Assembly: GCA_031268005.1 (NCBI GenBank)
Contig: JAIRYA010000058.1
Location: forward strand, 1 to 39,513
Source: Puniceicoccales bacterium
GTDB taxonomy: Bacteria; Verrucomicrobiota; Verrucomicrobiia; Opitutales; LL51
Direction: 5' to 3'
Length of the DNA: 39,513 nucleotides
The notes beneath the pieces are model-generated. The model was not told the origin of the DNA. It saw only the letters and a program-made list of their open reading frames with translations, and did not search any database. A program made the position numbers and the translations under genes. Within the stretch, counting starts at the first letter, position 1; the number at the start of each line of letters is the position of its first letter. Below are positions 2,368-30,316 of the stretch, in pieces.

Positions 2368-2521
2368 AATTATATACTACTTTTTAAACCTAGGGCATCC
2401 TTTTCAAATGACAAGCTAGAAAAAGCCACGAAAAATCGCATTATTATTAAAATATAGGCTTGCATACATTTTTATATTGGCAAAGGATGTTTATGAACTA
2501 GTCTTATTTACAGGCTTTATT

Positions 2522-3886
2522 ATGAATCTCAGTCGATATTTGTCTAAAAATCGTATCATTGAATTAAAAAGCAATGACTTCGACGACGCACTAAGAGAAT
2601 TATTACAGATTTGTAATGTCAATGATAAACCTGGAGAAAGTGCTTCCATCATCAATGAAATTGTGGAGCGCGAAAAAACAATTACTTCCTACCTCGGCAA
2701 TGGCATCGCCATGCCCTATATTCGCCGTCCCATCGGGAAACCCTACATCTTTGCCATCGGTCGATGTAAAAATGGTCTTAATTTTACAAATTCCGGAGAA
2801 CATAAGGACACGCGTGTCGTTTTTCTTATGATTATTTCTACGGAAAATGAAGAATCTTACCTCACCATTCTTGCTTCCATCGCCCGTATTTTTCAAAATC
2901 AGGACAATATCGCCCTCGTTCAAAAGGAACAAAGTATTGCGTCTTTTTGTAAAAATATTCACCATTTATTCGGCACATATAAATCCGCCGCCGATACGGA
3001 TAAAAATTCTATCAATCGCCTCATGTTGAGGGAGGCTCAAAAAATCGCTCGTTTTACCCAGTGCAGTGCCATTCTTATCTTTGGGGATGTTTTGACCAGC
3101 TCCCTTGAAATTAGAGAAAAATTTAGTAACATCCGCCTCTTGCTTGTTGCCCATAAAACGGATCACATTGATCCAAATGAGAATAATTTCAATGAAATTA
3201 TCTACGTTCATCCCTTTTCGAGTTCCCGACTTTCACAGGCTCGAAGTGCAATCCTCATCGCCCTCACACGCGGTATTCTAAACTACAGGGATAAAATTTG
3301 TTGCTTTTCAGGCCTTTCCAAGAGCAATATTTTCGATACCATTTCGGTTATCGACATTGCCAAGGAATTTAGCAATTCCTTTTCCGATAATGAAAATCTT
3401 ATCAAAGAAGGCATTCATCCCGAAGCCCTCGAACGTTTACTCGCCATTGCCGCCGATATTTCTGTCGAAGGACGGGAAGGTAAGCCCGTTGGCTGCCTCT
3501 TTGTCATCGGTGATATCGCTAAAATAAAACCCTATACTAAACCCCTCGTTTTAAATCCATTCTACGGCTACAAAGAAGAAGATCGCAATATTCTTAATCC
3601 TTTCATGGCCGAAACGATTAAAGAATTTTCTTCCATCGACGGTGCATTTATCGTCCGCGGTGACGGCGTCATTGAATCGGCGGGGTCCCTCATTCAGGCC
3701 TCTAGCACCCCCGTCATTGCAATGCCGAGTGGACTGGGTACGCGCCATGCGGCGGGTGCCGCAATTTCTGCGGTTGCGAATTGCATTGCCATCGCCGTCT
3801 CCGAAAGCACGCGCCAAGTCACCCTATTTAAAGACGGAAAAATGATGCTATTTTCGGAACAAAGTTTTTCCTCATCGGCAATTTAA
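2522..3886 (+). CDS. PTS EIIA(Fru/Ntr-like) domain fused to a DisA_N/DAC diadenylate cyclase domain (CdaZ/DacZ-like)
   Basis: N-terminal EIIA-like EREKTITSYLGNGIAMP; C-terminal DAC motifs EGREGKPVG, SSIDGAF (DGA) and LGTRHAA, then IAVSEST. ATG 2522 preferred over TTG 2477. Confidence 0.85.
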   Translation: MNLSRYLSKNRIIELKSNDFDDALRELLQICNVNDKPGESASIINEIVEREKTITSYLGNGIAMPYIRRPIGKPYIFAIGRCKNGLNFTNSGEHKDTRVVFLMIISTENEESYLTILASIARIFQNQDNIALVQKEQSIASFCKNIHHLFGTYKSAADTDKNSINRLMLREAQKIARFTQCSAILIFGDVLTSSLEIREKFSNIRLLLVAHKTDHIDPNENNFNEIIYVHPFSSSRLSQARSAILIALTRGILNYRDKICCFSGLSKSNIFDTISVIDIAKEFSNSFSDNENLIKEGIHPEALERLLAIAADISVEGREGKPVGCLFVIGDIAKIKPYTKPLVLNPFYGYKEEDRNILNPFMAETIKEFSSIDGAFIVRGDGVIESAGSLIQASSTPVIAMPSGLGTRHAAGAAISAVANCIAIAVSESTRQVTLFKDGKMMLFSEQSFSSSAI

Positions 3887-3919: not shown

Positions 3920-5476
3920 TTATTTCATCATTTGCGCCATTCTTTGTAATTTTTGGTGAATAAAATACGTAATAATAGCTAAAATTAGAAAAATTATGAA
4001 AAGTAAAATACCAAAACCGTCGGGTTTTACCGGAAAATTCATGTGCCAAGGAATATATTTTTCCGCCCACAATAGGACGCAATCGATCCATGCCACCCCC
4101 CAGCGCGCACCGAAAAATAGGCAATCACTCAGCCATCCTTCCACATTTAATAGTCCCGTTAGTAGAAATAAAAATCCGCAAACGACGGTTGGTAAGGCCA
4201 TTTGAATGACAACTGGATTCAGTAAAATCCCCGAAAAACTAAACATATTGAAATACTCAAAGGTCAAAGGTGCACTCGCCAGCGTCGCCGCCACCGATAC
4301 GGAAAATAATTCCACTCCCTTTCGTAGTATGTAGGCCTTTTTTGTTGCCCGATTCTCTTTTCTTAAAATATTTCCCCATCCCGTGTGCCTAAAAAAACAA
4401 AGCAATAGGTCCTGCAGCGGCAGGGAAAGTAGTAGTAACATGGCCACTACGCCATAGGAGAGTTGAAAACCGATGTCAAATAGTAAAAGCGGTTCGTAAA
4501 TCAGCGAAAGAATGGCCGCATTGAGCAGTGAATCTATTCCGGAAGTGCTTCGTCGAAATAGTCCTGCCGACCAATGGCAGGTAATCATGAGCCAAGCCCG
4601 GACCGCCGAGGGAGGGAATCCAATCGCCCCAACGTAGAGAAATAAAATGATGAGAATGGGCATTCGCCTCCAATTTTTTCCCAGGAAAAAACAGTGCAAT
4701 AGAAAATCTAAGGCAAAGCCAATCATTCCGATGTGCAAGCCACTTACCGCGAGTAAATGGGCCGCACCCGTATTGTGAAAATTGTCTTTTTGCTCCTTCG
4801 ACAATTCCTTTTTTTCGCTTAGCAACAAACCGTAGAGTATTCCATCGGAAGGATGATTTCCGTGCTTCTGTGCGTAGGATGCCACCCGATCCCGTAGGTG
4901 GCGATTGATGGTCGCGAAAAATGTTTGAGCGGGTTTGGCCTCTTCCAAAATTTCCAGGACCTCACCGCAATAGCCGTAGAGATAAATATTTTTTTGAACC
5001 AAGTAGGAAAAAAATGTTTCGGAACAATGGGGCTTTAATAGACGAATTCCCGATCGCACGCCTACGATTTGGGAAGGAATATAATCCCCATTGCCGTTGA
5101 AATAGAAATAAATTTTATGCCCTTCCAAAAATTTATATTTTTTTCCCGAAATATTTTTTATGATACCATAGCCATAGACCTTTCCGCGACTTGGTTTTTG
5201 ATCAATTTTTATGATTTCAATGGCGTAGGATAATTTCCAAATTTGCGTCCACTCACAGGTAAGTGACTTTTCCATGCGCCAAAAAGTTAGCAGGGCAACG
5301 GTACCCATAAAACACCAGGAATAAATAATTCTTTTCCATTTTATTCCCCATAGGCAATGCCCTAAAATTCCCGTTAATAATAAAATAAGACAAAAAATGA
5401 CACCGCCCCTTAGGTTCCAAAATTTTACACACGCAATCCCTAGCACCATTTGGATAAAAATGGGCAATGATGGCAT
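3920..5476 (-). CDS. comEC: ComEC/Rec2 competence-family membrane protein (no C-terminal metallo-beta-lactamase domain)
   Basis: TGAAHLLAVSGLHIG, PSAVRA and DIGFQLSY motifs; many TM segments. Confidence 0.9.
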   Translation of the reverse strand: MPSLPIFIQMVLGIACVKFWNLRGGVIFCLILLLTGILGHCLWGIKWKRIIYSWCFMGTVALLTFWRMEKSLTCEWTQIWKLSYAIEIIKIDQKPSRGKVYGYGIIKNISGKKYKFLEGHKIYFYFNGNGDYIPSQIVGVRSGIRLLKPHCSETFFSYLVQKNIYLYGYCGEVLEILEEAKPAQTFFATINRHLRDRVASYAQKHGNHPSDGILYGLLLSEKKELSKEQKDNFHNTGAAHLLAVSGLHIGMIGFALDFLLHCFFLGKNWRRMPILIILFLYVGAIGFPPSAVRAWLMITCHWSAGLFRRSTSGIDSLLNAAILSLIYEPLLLFDIGFQLSYGVVAMLLLLSLPLQDLLLCFFRHTGWGNILRKENRATKKAYILRKGVELFSVSVAATLASAPLTFEYFNMFSFSGILLNPVVIQMALPTVVCGFLFLLTGLLNVEGWLSDCLFFGARWGVAWIDCVLLWAEKYIPWHMNFPVKPDGFGILLFIIFLILAIITYFIHQKLQRMAQMMK

Positions 5477-5557: not shown

Positions 5558-5814
5558 GCGGGGCTGCTTGCCCTTAGGATCCCCGCCAGGAGACAAGTCT
5601 CCTGGACCTTTTCATCGACCAATGGCTTTGCAATCCCTAAAGGAATTGGACAAAGGGGTCTTTTTTTAAACAAGATCTTCCTTTTCCATGCCAAAACCGG
5701 GGAAGATTCTTCCCCGGTTTTGGCTGAAAGAGGTCAAGGAGTCTGCGACTCCTTGCGGAGTTTGAGGCAGAGCCTCAAGCAAACCTCCTTATAGGTGCAG
5801 GACAACGTCCTGCA
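5558..5814. repeat. Modular multi-hairpin intergenic repeat (REP/BIME-like), copy A
   Basis: Hairpins at 5586-5605, 5690-5724 (perfect 17-bp arms), 5735-5755, 5762-5778 and 5797-5813; collinear homolog at 28550-28792. Confidence 0.88.
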
Positions 5815-5838: not shown

Positions 5839-6807
5839 TTAAAATACTTTATTTAGGGTGATAGCAATCGTCGAATTTTTATCATTTTTGCCATATCTTC
5901 CCGAAAATGTAAGATCCAAAAAAATGGATTCGGTCCAATGGAAATGGATGTCCGCCGTGGCCAAAAATTTTGTGCCATCGAGACCGGAATGGATGAAATT
6001 TTCGCCAACGGAGTCTATGTTAATTTCGCCACCGGACCAGCGTTTTCGGATATTTTGTTCACCGCCAAGAAATAATTGTAGGTAAAATTTTTCATAATTT
6101 TTTTCGCATCTTATTCCAGCAATGCCATCAATTGTATGCAATCTCAGGGCGCTTTGATCCCATTCTTCGGCACCTTTTTGCTTTAAATTGTCGACGCCCA
6201 GGGCTATGTTTGGGCCAATTTTTAGATCATTCCATTTCCAAGGATAATAGAGATCTATTTTACTATGCAGGATGCGATGGCCGTGGGTAAAGTGATCAAA
6301 ATCCTGACCGTTAGCGGTAAAATTTTCGCAATTTGTATTGGATTTTCCAAATCCAAAAATCGACAGCGTTGAAACGTCCACCCCCAGGATGTGAAAATTA
6401 CCGTAGTAACCTCCAAACCCCATGTGCAAATCGCCTTTTTTCAAAGTATCGCAGCTGTAATGGATAAAATTCTTGGCAAAGCCACTGAAAAATCCCATGG
6501 AACAGGTCCGTTTCAGAATAAAATTATCGTAGTCAAAATCGAATCCCAAAAATGCGATGCCACCGTTGGAACAATGGCGCCTACCGTTTTCATGGGAATA
6601 GTCCACCATTCCATGAATTTCAAAGGGACGTGCACCTTCCTTTGGGAATATTTTTTCAGCATCAACGGAACGCCCCATCACCCCACTGCCCAAGGCGCAC
6701 GCATTATTTTTGAGGAGTGAGGCGAGCTCGGCGTAGGGACTTTCGAAGGCAAGTACCGCATTGCAAAGGAGTGCAAACCCTGGAAATAGAGTTTTTTTCG
6801 ATAACAT
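5839..6807 (-). CDS. Outer-membrane beta-barrel protein resembling an autotransporter translocator domain without a passenger
   Basis: Signal peptide (..LLCNAVLA/FE), short helical linker, alternating aromatic/Gly beta-strands, C-terminal ITLNKVF beta-signal ending in Phe. Confidence 0.65.
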   Translation of the reverse strand: MLSKKTLFPGFALLCNAVLAFESPYAELASLLKNNACALGSGVMGRSVDAEKIFPKEGARPFEIHGMVDYSHENGRRHCSNGGIAFLGFDFDYDNFILKRTCSMGFFSGFAKNFIHYSCDTLKKGDLHMGFGGYYGNFHILGVDVSTLSIFGFGKSNTNCENFTANGQDFDHFTHGHRILHSKIDLYYPWKWNDLKIGPNIALGVDNLKQKGAEEWDQSALRLHTIDGIAGIRCEKNYEKFYLQLFLGGEQNIRKRWSGGEINIDSVGENFIHSGLDGTKFLATADIHFHWTESIFLDLTFSGRYGKNDKNSTIAITLNKVF

Positions 6808-20187: not shown

Positions 20188-22197
20188 ATGAATAATCGTA
20201 TTGATTTAGGAAATGGAAGTCCCCCAGGCTTTAGTGGAGCTAATGGTAGTGAAAAGAAAAACCAAATTAATGCTAATTTACATTTCAAAAACGGTAAAAA
20301 TTTTACGATTCATATAAAAATGAAAGATGGGGAAAAGCCTATCGGGATGCAAAGTAGATTTAGTGATTTTTTTACTTTAAAAACCAAAACCATGAAAAAA
20401 TTGGCTGAAAGAAAAACTTTTTCGCCCGCAAAAGCTCGAGCGGCAATGAAAGGTATTGCTAAATACTTTACAAAAAATTGCCAAAGAAAAAACGCAGAAA
20501 AAACAAATGCCATTGAAGAAACATTTAGAAAAAGTGTAACTGAAAAAAAAGTCGACGATGAAATTATTAAAAGTCTTCAGGAGAGCTATGGGCCGGAAAA
20601 ATTAGAAGAAATGCAAAAAGAGAAAGACAAGAAAATTTTTTCTAAAGAGAATCTAGAAGATTGGAGCAATCTTATGGTCGAAATTTTAAAAAAAGCAGGC
20701 AATGATCCATATGTTTCCATATCATCCGAAAACCAGAATTCCGTTGCAAATTTTAAGATAAAAGCCGAAAATTCTCACACAACTCTCCCAGACCCACCTT
20801 CAAAAGATGAAATTTTAAAAAGTGCTAAAACATTAAAAAAAGAACTTATTAAAGAACTGGACAAACTTTCACCGGGAAATGGTGAGAAACTTTTCAAAAA
20901 GTACTATCCTAAGGCCTTAAGCGATAATGATGCTTGGAAACCTTTTCAAAAAAACATAAAACTCTTTACAAAAAACGGAGATCAAAAAAATTTCACCGCT
21001 TTCCTTGAGCCGGCAAATGGGATGGGATGCTTTAGCTATTTGGCAAAACCAGAAGAACCAAAAGATCCAGAAAAACCAAAGGGTGTTTCCTCCATGGAAC
21101 GCTTAGTTCCACATGCCATGAATTTATGGGAAACAAAAATTTCGACTAATTCAGATGAGAATCAGTCGTCTTCTCAAGATAAGCTGCTTTTCCGAGGCAT
21201 TCGCCATGGGAGCACAGGGGGAAATGAAGACGCGAGCAAAGAAATTATAACGGCTTGTTTGGTGCAAAAATTAGGGGGAATTAATGTTCTCGAAGACTCT
21301 ATGAAAGAGAATAATACGCAAGAAGAAAATGGATCAAAGGAGAAACCATTTTCTTTGACAATGAGCAACATTCAACTTATGACGGCAGGGATTTCCGGCG
21401 ATGGCGATATGCCGAAAAATCAAATGGAAACATTTCAAAAACTGGCAAAGGAATCACCCCTGGAATTGCAAATTCCCACACCGGGAGGAAAGCCGGTTTA
21501 TGTGAAATTTGAGTATATAGGATTTAATTATGGCGTGAATTTACAACAATTCCACCTGCCGCCAACCGTCGTAAAAAATTTAACAAAAGAAAATGCTGCT
21601 GCGATGGAAATTTTTCTAGGTAATAGTAAATCTATTGCTGAAAAGAATTTTCATCCTAAAACATTTGAAGATATCGACTTAGAACAAGAAAAAGAACTCT
21701 TTGGCGATTCTGAAGTTGGAAAATTTTTGAATTCAGGTGCTTCCGATGCTGAGAAGAAAATCGTTGTTCAACTCGCCCATCAAATTGCGGACATATTGGA
21801 ATCGGGGAAATATAAGACCGACGAATCCGAACCCTATGCCCTACCAGCACGACTAGTGCTATTGAGCGAAAAATTAGGATTGTCAACAACATACAATTGC
21901 AAAAGCGGAAAGGATAGAACGGGAATAGCAAGTATTGAAATCAATCACTTAGCGACGGAAATTGAAATGAATGGGGGGATTGTCCCCGAACCTTACCATC
22001 CCTTGGATGATCGCGAAAAGTTCAATTTAAACGAAATTAAAAATGAGAGTGGATCCGGTGAGATTACGAAAATAAACACGGGATGGGAAGGATTTAAAAT
22101 TAAAGATGCCATGTTATCCGTAAAAAATATATTCAAAGGGGTTAAAAATAGAATGGGTGATGTTCGAGGTGCATCAAGCTTAGTTAAAGGTGGGTGA
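20188..22197 (+). CDS. SopB/IpgD-family inositol/phosphoinositide phosphatase effector
   Basis: Catalytic CX5R motif NCKSGKDRTG plus collinear family motifs KGVSS..HAMNLW, LFRGIRHG, FNYGVN, LAHQIADI..EPYALPARL and EITKINTG.GFK. Confidence 0.9.
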   Translation: MNNRIDLGNGSPPGFSGANGSEKKNQINANLHFKNGKNFTIHIKMKDGEKPIGMQSRFSDFFTLKTKTMKKLAERKTFSPAKARAAMKGIAKYFTKNCQRKNAEKTNAIEETFRKSVTEKKVDDEIIKSLQESYGPEKLEEMQKEKDKKIFSKENLEDWSNLMVEILKKAGNDPYVSISSENQNSVANFKIKAENSHTTLPDPPSKDEILKSAKTLKKELIKELDKLSPGNGEKLFKKYYPKALSDNDAWKPFQKNIKLFTKNGDQKNFTAFLEPANGMGCFSYLAKPEEPKDPEKPKGVSSMERLVPHAMNLWETKISTNSDENQSSSQDKLLFRGIRHGSTGGNEDASKEIITACLVQKLGGINVLEDSMKENNTQEENGSKEKPFSLTMSNIQLMTAGISGDGDMPKNQMETFQKLAKESPLELQIPTPGGKPVYVKFEYIGFNYGVNLQQFHLPPTVVKNLTKENAAAMEIFLGNSKSIAEKNFHPKTFEDIDLEQEKELFGDSEVGKFLNSGASDAEKKIVVQLAHQIADILESGKYKTDESEPYALPARLVLLSEKLGLSTTYNCKSGKDRTGIASIEINHLATEIEMNGGIVPEPYHPLDDREKFNLNEIKNESGSGEITKINTGWEGFKIKDAMLSVKNIFKGVKNRMGDVRGASSLVKGG

Positions 22198-22534: not shown

Positions 22535-22625
22535 AATCCCTGCGACGAAATATTCCATATGAAAATGTGTTCTTTTTGCAAAACAAAAACAAAACAAAAA
22601 ATGGAGACTGCTTCCCAGGGGGTAT

Positions 22626-22670
22626 TTGCCCTTAGAATCCACGCCAGGAGATCTGTTTCCTGGGACCCCT
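22626..22670. repeat. Truncated copy (left module only) of the multi-hairpin repeat, copy C
   Basis: ttgcccttagaatccacgccaggagatctgtttcctgggacc aligns with ttgcccttaggatccccgccaggagacaagtctcctggacc of copy A (5568-5608). Confidence 0.75.
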
Positions 22671-22690
22671 CCCGTGCCCATGAAAAGCTT

Positions 22691-27425: not shown

Positions 27426-28496
<1,071 letters not shown>

Positions 28497-28549: not shown

Positions 28550-28792
28550 CTAAGTGCTCGCGCCCCTAGAAACCCCGTCGGGAGACTTGTCTCCTGGACC
28601 TCTCCAATAGCCCAATGGATTTGCAATTTGCAAAGCCATTTGGCAACAAAAGTCTTTTTTAAACAGAACTCTCTTTCCCAGGCCAAAGCCCGGCGCAAAT
28701 TGCGCCGGGCTTTGGCCTAAAAGGTCAAGGAGTCCAATGACTCCTTGCAGGTGCAGGACGGCGTCCTGCGAGCCAGCAACGGAATTCCGTTG
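28550..28792. repeat. Modular multi-hairpin intergenic repeat (REP/BIME-like), copy B
   Basis: Hairpins at 28578-28597, 28614-28640, 28680-28718 (perfect 19-bp arms), 28726-28747 and 28753-28769, plus palindrome 28777-28792; collinear with copy A. Confidence 0.88.
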
Positions 28793-28888: not shown

Positions 28889-30316
28889 ATGACTAGGATT
28901 AAACTGTATAACACTCGGAGCCGTCAAATTGAGGAAATTATTCCCGAAAATCCAGATGGAATATTGCGAATTTACTGCTGCGGTCCGACCGTATATAATT
29001 ACGCCCACATCGGCAATTTCCGTACCTTTTTACTTCAGGATGTTTTGCGCCGTTTATTGATTGCAACGGGCTATTCCGTAAAATTCGTCCGCAATTTGAC
29101 CGATGTGGATGATAAAACAATTCGGGGAGCCCAAAAAGAAAACATTTCACTGCAAAATTTTACGGAAAAATGGACGCATATCTTTCATCGCGATTGCGAA
29201 GAACTGAACATCTTAGACGCCGACGTGGAACCGAAAGCGGCGGGACATATCGGGGAACAAATTGCGATGATTGAAACTCTAATTCGAAAAAAACATGCCT
29301 ATATTGCCCCGGATGGTTCGGTCTATTTTCGCCTTTCGTCGTTTCCAAGCTACGGCAAGCTTTCCAGAATTGACCTGGGGAAGCTGACGACACAAAGTGA
29401 AAATAGTTCGGGGCAGGCAAATTTAGCGGATGAGTACGATCGGGATTCGGTCCAGGATTTTGCCCTATGGAAAGCCTACAAACCTGAAGACGGCGATGTC
29501 TTTTGGAAAAGTCCCTGGGGAAAGGGGCGGCCGGGTTGGCACATCGAATGCAGTGCGATGTCGGTGAAATATTTGGGTGAAACTATCGATATCCATGGCG
29601 GTGGCATCGATCTTTGTTTCCCACACCATGAAAATGAAATTGCACAAACGGAGTGTGCGACGGGAAACCCTTTCGTGCGCCATTGGTTCCATTCGGAGCA
29701 CCTACAAGTCGAGGGGCAAAAAATGTCGAAAAGTTTGGGTAATCTTTTTACCCTAGCGGACCTCAAAAACAGAGGCTATGCACCTGAAACAGTCCGCTAT
29801 GCGCTGATCAGTGGCCATTACCGGCAGATTTTGAATTTTACCCTATCCGGACTCGATGCGGCCCAAAGTGCACTGAATAAATTGAAAATTAAAATAAAAA
29901 ATTTACACAAAAATAGTGAATTTACCGGGAATGAAGATGAAATTTTTTCCTCTAAAAATATAACCTATCGCCATTTTAATGGAGCGATTGAAGCGCTAGA
30001 AAATGATCTGAATATCCCCAAATGTTTGGGGGAAATTTTTTCCGTTTTGAATGGGGATGCCACCGGCGGTGAATTATTTTTGGAAGAGTTGTATTTTCTC
30101 TGTTTTATCCTGGGCATTGAGAAATTTATATTTAGTAAAAATCGAGACAGGGAATCCGTCGAAATTCCAGAGGACATCGCCGAACTCGCCGCGAGACGGT
30201 GGGAAGCGAAGCGTAATAAAAATTTTGCGGAATCCGATCGATTGCGACAGTCTCTCTCCGAAAAGGGCTGGAATGTTGTCGATCACAGGGAAGCATATGA
30301 TTTGTACCAACAATGA
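28889..30316 (+). CDS. cysS: Cysteine--tRNA ligase
   Basis: CGPTVYNYAHIGN, DFALWK, GRPGWHIECSAM, FPHHENEIAQ, KMSKS. Confidence 0.99.
   Translation: MTRIKLYNTRSRQIEEIIPENPDGILRIYCCGPTVYNYAHIGNFRTFLLQDVLRRLLIATGYSVKFVRNLTDVDDKTIRGAQKENISLQNFTEKWTHIFHRDCEELNILDADVEPKAAGHIGEQIAMIETLIRKKHAYIAPDGSVYFRLSSFPSYGKLSRIDLGKLTTQSENSSGQANLADEYDRDSVQDFALWKAYKPEDGDVFWKSPWGKGRPGWHIECSAMSVKYLGETIDIHGGGIDLCFPHHENEIAQTECATGNPFVRHWFHSEHLQVEGQKMSKSLGNLFTLADLKNRGYAPETVRYALISGHYRQILNFTLSGLDAAQSALNKLKIKIKNLHKNSEFTGNEDEIFSSKNITYRHFNGAIEALENDLNIPKCLGEIFSVLNGDATGGELFLEELYFLCFILGIEKFIFSKNRDRESVEIPEDIAELAARRWEAKRNKNFAESDRLRQSLSEKGWNVVDHREAYDLYQQ

Follow-up and report, generated by a model that had tools for sequence, protein, structure and literature searches.

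A mosaic family of intergenic hairpin repeats in the small genome of a Puniceicoccales bacterium

Introduction

Two intergenic regions in the genome of a Puniceicoccales bacterium of the family LL51 (Verrucomicrobiota; Opitutales) are built from the same series of short palindromes, which raises the question of whether these regions are DNA repeats, copies of a structured RNA, or elements of another kind. They lie at positions 5558–5814 (copy A) and 28550–28792 (copy B) of the forward strand of contig JAIRYA010000058.1, the full 39,513 nucleotides of which were analyzed and are hereafter called the window (contig C43 of assembly GCA_031268005.1, designated G000). The original prediction, made from the sequence alone, regarded the two copies as members of a non-autonomous, structure-selected element family of the REPIN, BIME or MITE type, or of a multicopy structured non-coding RNA, perhaps undescribed for this lineage. 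In this study, the size, anatomy, pairing behavior and distribution of the family are described, and the explanations that these features allow are weighed.

The Opitutales families with reduced genomes of <1 Mb (LL51 and UBA9783) are described as gut-associated or as putative protist endosymbionts in the available parts of two reports (PMC12306168, PMC11257099), and the other genomes of the order are mostly 2–6 Mb in size. Within the available part of the former report (PMC12306168), the word “repeat” occurs 0 times. Small host-dependent genomes are expected to shed repeats, yet the genome considered here, of ~0.9 Mb, devotes about one-eighth of the DNA outside its open reading frames (ORFs) to a single family. 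This family also constitutes a clean natural set of compensated palindromes with which RNA and DNA explanations can be separated.

Size and genomic placement of the family

The G000 assembly comprises 919,556 bases in 72 contigs, with a G+C content of 43% and a completeness of 89%. When copy A was used as the nhmmer query, 131 places in this assembly were matched, and copy B was recovered with an E-value of 8e-21. A census was then made by three rounds of nhmmer, with same-place matches removed, in which a left unit (L) was defined by modules a, b and c plus a T-run, and a right unit (R) by modules e and f plus a slot occupied by g, h or i. This census identified 71 L and 78 R units, a total of ~149 units in 78 loci, which together amount to 15.4 kb, or 1.7% of the assembly; of the DNA left uncovered by a crude ORF map, they make up 12%. 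The possibility that only copies A and B exist is thus clearly contradicted, and the initial description of a multicopy, non-coding, modular family of the REP/BIME/REPIN kind is borne out.

None of the 78 loci interrupts a long ORF; 23 of them touch ORFs of the crude map, which by inspection are either short ORFs made of the repeats themselves or longer ORFs touched at their first or last bases. Between convergent genes there are 27 loci, between divergent genes 13 (~1/6) and between co-directional genes 28, the last group consisting of 18 that are oriented against the flanking genes and 10 that are oriented with them, and a further 10 loci are situated at contig ends. The genes that flank the repeats are housekeeping genes, including those for SHMT, a FabG-like protein, Obg, a release factor, Dxr, UppS, Gmk, LigA and L19.

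Tandem units of 230–280 bp form long arrays of up to 0.8 kb (e.g., C26:4227-5042, C59:593-1345, C22:15319-16007, and C40:10484-11266), and these arrays also hold a second unit type in which the GC hairpin d (CCCCGCGGC-NNN-GCCGCGGGG) takes the place of e-f. Units of the same array have a median identity of 0.92 (14 pairs), as against 0.65 for units at different loci (2002 pairs), and the best non-local partner of a unit has a median identity of 82%. Because identity is 92% within arrays and 65% between loci, the arrays appear to grow by local duplication or to be homogenized, and dispersal appears to be old.

Anatomy of the repeat unit

Every module of the unit is a hairpin. The reverse complement of the L consensus aligns with the R consensus (TTGGGCTAAGGAGAGGTCCAGGAGAC..GTCTCCTGGCGG against TTTGGCTGA-AAGAGGTCAAGGAGTC..GACTCCTTGCGG) with a score of 40, compared with 15.9 ± 2.6 and a maximum of 27 for shuffled sequences. 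Owing to this alignment, module c can be equated with e, b with f, and a with the g/h/i slot. The full unit is an inverted duplication, in which two triplets stand head to head around a T-rich center, and this arrangement accounts for the opposite-strand self-matches that were observed with nhmmer. Each triplet, ~100 nt in length, consists of a 35-nt long variable palindrome, followed by a 9-bp hairpin of the AGGAG type with fixed flanks and then by a short GC hairpin. In every stem, and on both strands, the 5′ arm is purine-rich and AGGAG-like and the 3′ arm is CTCCT-like. Wherever both halves occur, L precedes R on the same strand.

Copy A is a full unit on the plus strand with the module order a-b-c-T-e-f-g-h. 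Its first module is the short GC hairpin a (GGGGC..GCCC TTAGG; 5560–5578), which is followed by hairpin b (CCAGGAGAC-AA-GTCTCCTGG and then ACC; 5586–5605), of a type common to unrelated phyla, by the degraded palindrome c with 17-bp arms (GCCCAATGGCTTTGCAA-T-TTGCAAAGCCATTGGGC; 5617–5651), and by the T-rich segment that forms the symmetry center of the unit (GGGGTC-T7-AAACAAGATC; 5655–5681). The second half contains the perfect palindrome e, with 17-bp arms and one central base (5690–5724), and hairpin f (CAAGGAGTC-TGC-GACTCCTTG; 5735–5755), which together with its flanks is the inverted counterpart of b and is the best conserved module across the genus; hairpins g (TTGAGGC-AGA-GCCTCAA; 5762–5778), which is extra relative to copy B, and h (TGCAGGAC-AAC-GTCCTGCA; 5796–5814) complete the unit.

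Copy B, likewise a full unit on the plus strand, has the order a-b-c-T-e-f-h-x. Its hairpin b is imperfect, with two wobble-type mismatches between TCGGGAGAC and GTCTCCTGG (TCGGGAGAC-TT-GTCTCCTGG; 28578–28597), its palindrome c is long and near-perfect (28610–28644), and its palindrome e is perfect, with 19-bp arms (28680–28718). Hairpins f (CAAGGAGTC-CAAT-GACTCCTTG; 28726–28747) and h (TGCAGGAC-GGC-GTCCTGC; 28752–28769) follow, and the unit ends with a 16-bp palindrome, CAACGGAATTCCGTTG (28777–28792), which was not noticed elsewhere as a module of the family.

The two copies, 23 kb apart, align over their whole length with a mean column identity of 76%, and their positions and common module order are as first reported, as are the exchanged hairpin loops (AA/TT, TGC/CAAT and AAC/GGC in A and B, respectively), the extra module of A, and the additional 16-bp palindrome of B. 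Three features had been overlooked in that first inspection: the mismatches in hairpin b of copy B, the degradation of palindrome c in copy A, and a third, partial copy on the plus strand that consists of modules a and b only (22619–22680) and lies ~420 bp 3′ of an IpgD-like ORF.

A further sequence accompanies the units: at G000:C40:6260-6329, directly 5′ of an L unit, a 19-bp unit, GGGGCTGCGGTTTGTCCTA, is repeated in tandem at least three times, and shorter versions of it are found before many L units.

Compensated pairing of the palindromes

The arms of the central palindrome are GCCAAAACCGGGGAAGA in copy A and GCCAAAGCCCGGCGCAA in copy B, and they differ at 6 of 17 positions. In both copies, the palindrome was confirmed to be a perfect inverted repeat about a single base, so that all six differences are compensated, as had been claimed; in B, the arms extend beyond the shared 17 positions to 19 bp. 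When folded as single-stranded DNA, the copies yielded z-scores of −8.5 (A) and −8.6 (B), and none of 200 shuffled sequences folded equally well.

Compensation was also evident throughout the family. In an alignment restricted to the 64 of 78 R units whose profile match covers both e and f (14 were excluded), standard pairs occupy 89.7% of 1993 cells, compared with 80.1% after shuffling. Changes on both sides of a pair were found in 210 cells, compared with 76.6 ± 7.8 after shuffling (a count of 210 was reached in 0 of 500 shuffles) and with 33–51 when the partner was slid by 1–3 columns; the shuffle test is inflated by related rows, whereas the slid controls retain this relatedness and are still far lower. 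Double changes affect 24 of the 33 pairs, namely 13 of 17 in helix e, 4 of 9 in helix f and all 7 in the third slot. Stems of at least 12 bp are formed by e in 48 of the 78 R units, 29 of which are perfect and 40 of which have a loop of 0–1 nt. Some of the imperfect copies have the appearance of hybrids, with a left arm from one variant and a right arm from a second (e.g., C26:4655-4799).

The retention of ~90% pairing at such divergence therefore points either to selection on the hairpin or to some copying mechanism, for instance template switching inside the palindrome. The term “structure-selected” thus holds in so far as the stems are kept by compensated changes; selection as their cause is indistinguishable from the correction of one arm by template switching.

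Evidence for action at the DNA or the RNA level

An RNA that is selected on one strand would tolerate G·U mismatches and would not tolerate A·C mismatches. Across the three helices, G·T and T·G mismatches (122) and A·C and C·A mismatches (112) are equally frequent (p = 0.56), and on the mRNA-sense strand of the co-directional loci, 35 wobble-type mismatches stand against 63 of the A·C type, the reverse of the RNA expectation; members of an array share ancestry, so that these counts are not independent, and the latter ratio is to be read simply as no support for RNA. Scans called no promoter-like site in A or B, and copy B also lacked a called terminator-like site. A search of the window against Rfam returned three tRNAs only at the gathering threshold, the best sub-threshold match being Termite-leu (28 bits against a threshold of 51), and searches of the congener arrays, the outgroup elements and 20 metagenome loci returned only spurious matches of long hairpins to miRNA, RRE and EBV models.

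The strand-symmetric mismatches, the loops of 0–1 nt and the lack of an Rfam match lean towards a family that acts at the DNA level rather than as an ordinary RNA. This agrees with the initial suggestion of hairpins in single-stranded or cruciform DNA, or of conversion between arms, whereas the other suggestion, that of a multicopy structured non-coding RNA, finds neither a matching Rfam family nor an excess of wobble pairs in its favor.

Distribution in the genus and in unrelated bacteria

With copy A as the query, matches were obtained in 8 of the 13 other species of the genus, in 0 of 3 in the sister genus and in 0 of 24 other families of the order; the lack of a match is valid for this query alone. 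Arrays taken from six congeners present their slots in the order a, b, long palindrome, GC hairpin, AT-rich palindrome, second long palindrome, f, and GC hairpin, and those of one species (G003) are composed of tandem units of ~275 bp. Across these congeners, hairpin f and its flanks are nearly constant, and each species has stems of its own in b and in the two long palindromes. In G011 (L049), which copy A does not match, the R profile detected a nested palindromic element 5′ of the GAPDH gene (E = 3.7e-13), and similar nested elements were recognized by eye at the corresponding place in G005 (L052), G006 (L055) and G010 (L050); within a long outer stem, GGGGCAAAAGC...GCTTTTGCCCC, there are two or three inner hairpins, the order of which varies. 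Because the R profile detects the G011 copy, the family extends, in additional diverged forms, to genomes that were missed with copy A. At one congener locus (L130; G002:C5:3800-4245), an a-b-d repeat unit is directly followed on its 3′ side by a sequence that may resemble RNase P RNA.

The core hairpin is not confined to this genus. An exact scan for CCAGGAGACNNGTCTCCTGGACCT in one genome per species gave seven matches at six loci in four unrelated metagenome-assembled genomes (MAGs), which belong to the Eubacteriales, Clostridiales, Rhodospirillaceae and Magnetococcales. The core hairpin can be written as CCAGGAGNC-loop-GNCTCCTGGACCTC. A looser hairpin pattern matched 163 times in the Eubacteriales MAG (G041), 60 times in the Rhodospirillaceae MAG (G042), 10 times in the Clostridiales MAG (G043), 8 times in the Magnetococcales MAG (G044) and 36 times in G000, compared with 0 matches of a reversed control pattern in each of the five genomes. 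The flanks of the hairpin agree across these genomes, with ACCC(C)G before it and ACCTC after it (the pattern requires ACC and leaves the rest free). In the unrelated MAGs, the hairpin likewise follows a short GC hairpin and lies beside a long palindrome, and inverted pairs are spaced 125–235 bp apart. At one locus of the Clostridiales MAG (L033; SVGT01000003.1, 65567-66957), there are two direct copies of ~167 bp, each of which starts with a doublet of a GC hairpin and a CCAGGAGAC hairpin, corresponding to a-b. No match was found in 300 other genomes of the same phylum as G000 with a pattern of the same form that is stricter in fixing C/G at the loop edge.

In a metagenome collection, at least 120 stretches carry the core hairpin, with a median G+C content of 66% among the matches listed. 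The 120 listed stretches share the consensus of a three-hairpin array, CAGGGC-tcc-GCCCTG AAACCCG CCAGGAGGC-nnn-GCCTCCTGG ACCTCCGCCAAAGGCC, and the R profile aligns with 45 of them across f and the hairpin that follows it. Phages were considered as a vector for the spread of the hairpin and were set aside, as a viral collection gave just three matches.

A chance likeness between the hairpins of different phyla seems unlikely, because their flanks and neighbors are shared; convergence is possible, because all of the stems are formed by an AGGAG-like arm and a complementary CTCCT-like one. In the open literature, the motif strings were encountered only as unrelated primers. The expectation that the repeats are undescribed for this lineage was thus partly upheld: within the reach of the literature searches, no description was found, and the core hairpin proved not to be lineage-specific.

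A probable DNA-level repeat family and its relation to known systems

On the basis of these features, we regard it as somewhat probable that the units constitute a REPIN/BIME-like mosaic repeat family that operates at the DNA level without a known mobilizing or maintaining factor. Such a mosaic of hairpin modules would work, or simply persist, as DNA. Its units may multiply locally by tandem duplication into arrays, and a process acting on extruded hairpins may have dispersed them to dozens of intergenic sites, mostly at the 3′ ends of genes. Palindromy might be kept up because the hairpin is the form that is recognized by a spreading or maintaining machinery, or because template switching during replication copies one arm of the palindrome onto the other, and either route would yield changes that appear compensated without the involvement of RNA. 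Ectopic recombination would be a side effect, by which repeats may be left at synteny breakpoints.

The closest parallels are the REP, REPIN and BIME sequences of Escherichia coli and Pseudomonas, which share with this family their short intergenic palindromes, high copy number, inverted doublets, mosaic composition, clustering, preference for 3′ ends and non-coding nature. REP sequences and REPINs are served by RAYT (Y1/HUH) transposases, the genes of which usually lie between such repeats. BIMEs, in particular, are reiterated mosaics in which palindromic units in alternating orientation are combined with other conserved motifs, and some of those in E. coli are bound by IHF, gyrase or Pol I. 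The family differs from the REP–RAYT system in that no Y1_Tnp gene was found in any of the 14 genomes of the genus, and in that GTAG/CTAC, the presence of which beside the hairpin defines REPs, occurs within 8 nt of just 4 of 138 b/f hairpins. It also differs from REPs in its dimensions, since a REP measures ~35 nt and the triplet ~100 nt, including a 35-nt variable palindrome, and in the tandem arrangement of its 230–280-bp units. The designation “REPIN” is therefore apt for the inverted doublets, the intergenic position and the high copy number, and inapt with respect to the RAYT gene and the tetranucleotide. The designation “MITE-like”, which implies derivation from an IS, is unsupported, as no terminal inverted repeats with target duplications were found and the ends of the units are fuzzy.

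A second parallel is provided by the NTS/SRM hairpins and the Ssn GIY-YIG nucleases, which, in the available part of their description (PMC11893778), resemble the present case in having oriented hairpins with conserved non-palindromic flanks, many clustered copies, a cross-phylum distribution and an association with competence genes. The SRM pattern given there (PMC11893778) is not enriched in G000, and its stem differs in sequence. A search with PF01541 revealed no gene of the Ssn type (small GIY-YIG, cd10448), which in known cases is often flanked by the motif. BOX elements of Streptococcus pneumoniae and NIMEs of Neisseria are also intergenic and composed of modular boxes in variable number and order that form stable hairpins, and to our knowledge they have no transposase of their own; they have no sequence likeness to the present family, in which each module forms a hairpin of its own and the unit consists of two inverted copies. 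Rickettsia palindromic elements (RPEs) likewise flourish as palindromic repeats in a genome that is small and host-dependent, and we know of no transposase for them; they often lie in frame inside genes, whereas the units described here do not lie inside genes. The family is thus set apart from both the REP–RAYT and the NTS/SRM–Ssn systems and is filed among the hairpin repeats.

Several results weigh against a REPIN/BIME-like family that spreads as DNA. The search for an enzyme was made at the Pfam level and covered Y1_Tnp, IS110, TnpB TNB and GIY-YIG in genomes of the genus that are 64–95% complete. Neither Y1_Tnp (RAYT, PF01797) nor the IS110 DEDD domain was found in any of the 14 genomes, the TnpB TNB domain was absent from G000, and GIY-YIG (PF01541) was absent from G000 and present in 1 of 13 congeners. 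Neither sharp unit ends nor target duplications were recognized by eye in 58 left borders, and the dispersed copies are old (median identity 0.65), so that recent movement is unsupported. To these points must be added the non-independence of the mismatch counts, the small number of loci (three) on which the synteny pattern described below is based, and the fact that synteny is broken at all three, for which reason a filled site could not be compared with an empty orthologous one.

None of the candidate enzymes tested (Y1_Tnp, TnpB TNB, IS110 DEDD and GIY-YIG) tracks the repeats. Of the four hairpin-bearing outgroups, just one, which has fewer hairpins than the others, carries Y1_Tnp. In the window, no transposase family was found among the 34 ORFs compared with Pfam (7 at E ≤ 0.001 and 28 at E ≤ 1e-5), ~9 of which have no Pfam match, in accordance with the original statement on this point. 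The core hairpin recurs in unrelated MAGs and metagenomes in the absence of both enzyme families that serve repeats of this kind elsewhere, and this recurrence points to another, missing participant in the spread or use of hairpin repeats.

Two other candidates were rejected. The gene for UPF0102, a YraN-like nuclease (G000:C59:22506-22874), has repeats on both sides, which is considered a coincidence; hairpins at this gene were found in 0 of 4 outgroups and are almost lacking in 12 congeners (one a-type module, in G007). An autonomous element between inverted hairpins was sought in the Eubacteriales MAG, in which the enclosed ORFs are ordinary (an ABC transporter, a ribosome hibernation factor, a deaminase, a BNR protein and YkuD).

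More tentatively, the repeats might be part of a cross-phylum superfamily of hairpin elements marked by the a-b doublet, which would have entered this reduced, host-dependent lineage horizontally, expanded, and driven changes in gene order, and which would be served by an enzyme that is neither RAYT nor Ssn; this broader proposal seems doubtful to us. Its core would be ACCC(C)G-CCAGGAGNC-loop-GNCTCCTGG-ACCTC, with a short GC hairpin before it and a long variable palindrome after it. The enzyme might act on single strands or cruciforms, and the expansion to ~12% of the non-ORF DNA would, on this doubtful proposal, be its outcome.

Alternative explanations

A different explanation is that the units act as RNA in the 3′ untranslated regions of genes or between cistrons, where they could block exonucleases, bring about the termination or insulation of transcription, or mask sites of the AGGAG type, and where palindromic hairpins would work in either orientation. 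REP sequences in E. coli mRNAs have such roles, and the preference for gene 3′ ends (27 convergent and 13 divergent loci), the strong folding, the clear covariation, the AGGAG-like and CTCCT-like arms of each stem on both strands, and two terminator-like sites that a simple scan called on the plus strand of copy A would all be expected of RNA elements. We nevertheless consider this explanation unlikely, as the wobble excess is absent both overall and in the mRNA sense, 13 loci, including copy B, lie between divergent gene starts, loops of 0–1 nt predominate (40 of 48), the strong stems are not directly followed by T-runs, copy B has no called terminator-like site, neither copy has a promoter-like one, and no Rfam family was matched. 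The symmetry of the mismatches between strands, together with a palindromic symmetry that reaches the very center of the modules and the fixed flanks of b and f, would equally suit double-strand binding sites for nucleoid organizers, gyrase, an IHF-like protein or a dimeric regulator, in which case palindromy would reflect the symmetry of a dimer, and a protein with four Myb-like DNA-binding domains is encoded next to one repeat locus. However, the long palindromes vary freely and yet stay symmetric (13 of 17 pairs of e are doubly changed), and stems differ species by species, which is a misfit for a sequence-specific binder; such sites are considered quite improbable.

Much the same low probability is assigned to the idea that the hairpins are sites of a site-specific single-strand DNA nuclease, or of a similar factor, that modulates natural transformation or recombination. 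Their format is that of the hairpins in the available part of PMC11893778 (oriented and bounded by fixed flanks, with tens to hundreds of copies that cluster around genes, and found across phyla), ComEC and DprA are retained in the genome, and unrelated genomes contain multiple copies of the b/f hairpin together with its flanks. The distribution of GIY-YIG genes speaks against such a nuclease: beyond their absence from G000 and near absence from its congeners, the outgroup with 163 hairpins (G041) has as its sole GIY-YIG ORF one of 637 aa, the size of UvrC, and in G042 no such hairpin occurs within ~1.5 kb of the small GIY-YIG gene. Furthermore, the published SRM pattern has three matches in the G000 genome, none of them in units, compared with 1–5 in shuffled sequences. 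That the repeats are an artefact of mis-assembly or of a chimeric MAG is scarcely credible, even though the assembly consists of 72 contigs, is 89% complete and has 14 of its 144 contig ends within 600 bp of a unit: the enrichment at contig ends is slight (9.7%, as against 7.1% in randomly placed windows of 600 bp), units are found well within long contigs, with intact housekeeping genes on both sides, and have diverged from each other, and the same architecture is found in assemblies of eight other species.

Repeats at synteny junctions

If the family does act as DNA in a REPIN/BIME-like manner, traces of recombination might be left at its loci. Copy A lies 3′ of a 322-aa ORF (ORF322; 5839–6807, minus strand) and 5′ of the ComEC gene (3920–5476, minus strand), and copy B lies between the divergent starts of the genes for GAPDH (27426–28472, minus strand) and CysRS (28889–30316, plus strand). 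Three repeat junctions were examined, GAPDH|CysRS, ORF322|ComEC and SHMT|LigA, and each of these adjacencies is unique to G000 among its relatives. At the ORF322 site, a prepilin-like gene (GFT-IE motif) that is absent from this site in G000 replaces ComEC in the ten relatives with a full-length match, and at the SHMT site a conserved co-directional gene, unaccompanied by units, is present in the relatives. On the repeat-free side, the ABC ATPase gene beside ORF322 and the neighbor of SHMT are each conserved in 11 of 11 loci; the other neighbor of GAPDH was found in only two of the loci from relatives, a number limited by flank length. The location of repeats at rearrangement junctions in all three loci is suggestive, no statistic being attached to it, and is consistent with a link between the repeats and rearrangement. 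The 322-aa ORF has no Pfam match and is fast-evolving, being 59% identical to its counterparts in the nearest congeners and 31% identical to those in the most distant ones.

The organism and neighboring genes

The gene content indicates that the bacterium is probably host-dependent. The protein cluster nearest to its CysRS is most frequent in Verrucomicrobiota. An ATP/ADP translocase (TLC/NTT, PF03219, 580 bits) is encoded at G000:C62:19723-21180, which provides a lead to energy parasitism as judged from the sequence, and the genome also encodes an ankyrin-repeat protein, ComEC and DprA. Two ORFs of the IpgD family (PF05925) were identified, one in the window at 20188–22197 on the plus strand (669 aa, 107 bits) and one at G000:C21:4974-7115 (713 aa, 74 bits). 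Both of these ORFs, which resemble inositol-phosphatase effectors, adjoin repeat loci; they are unusual in a 0.9-Mb genome and fit a eukaryote-associated lifestyle. The protein with four Myb-like domains (PF00249, 189 bits), which is of a eukaryotic type, is 308 aa in length and is encoded at G000:C1:189-1115, adjoining a repeat locus and DprA. Finally, the ORF at 2477–3886 on the plus strand of the window encodes a fusion of PTS EIIA, a DacZ_P sensor and DAC (c-di-AMP synthase), an uncommon combination of domains.

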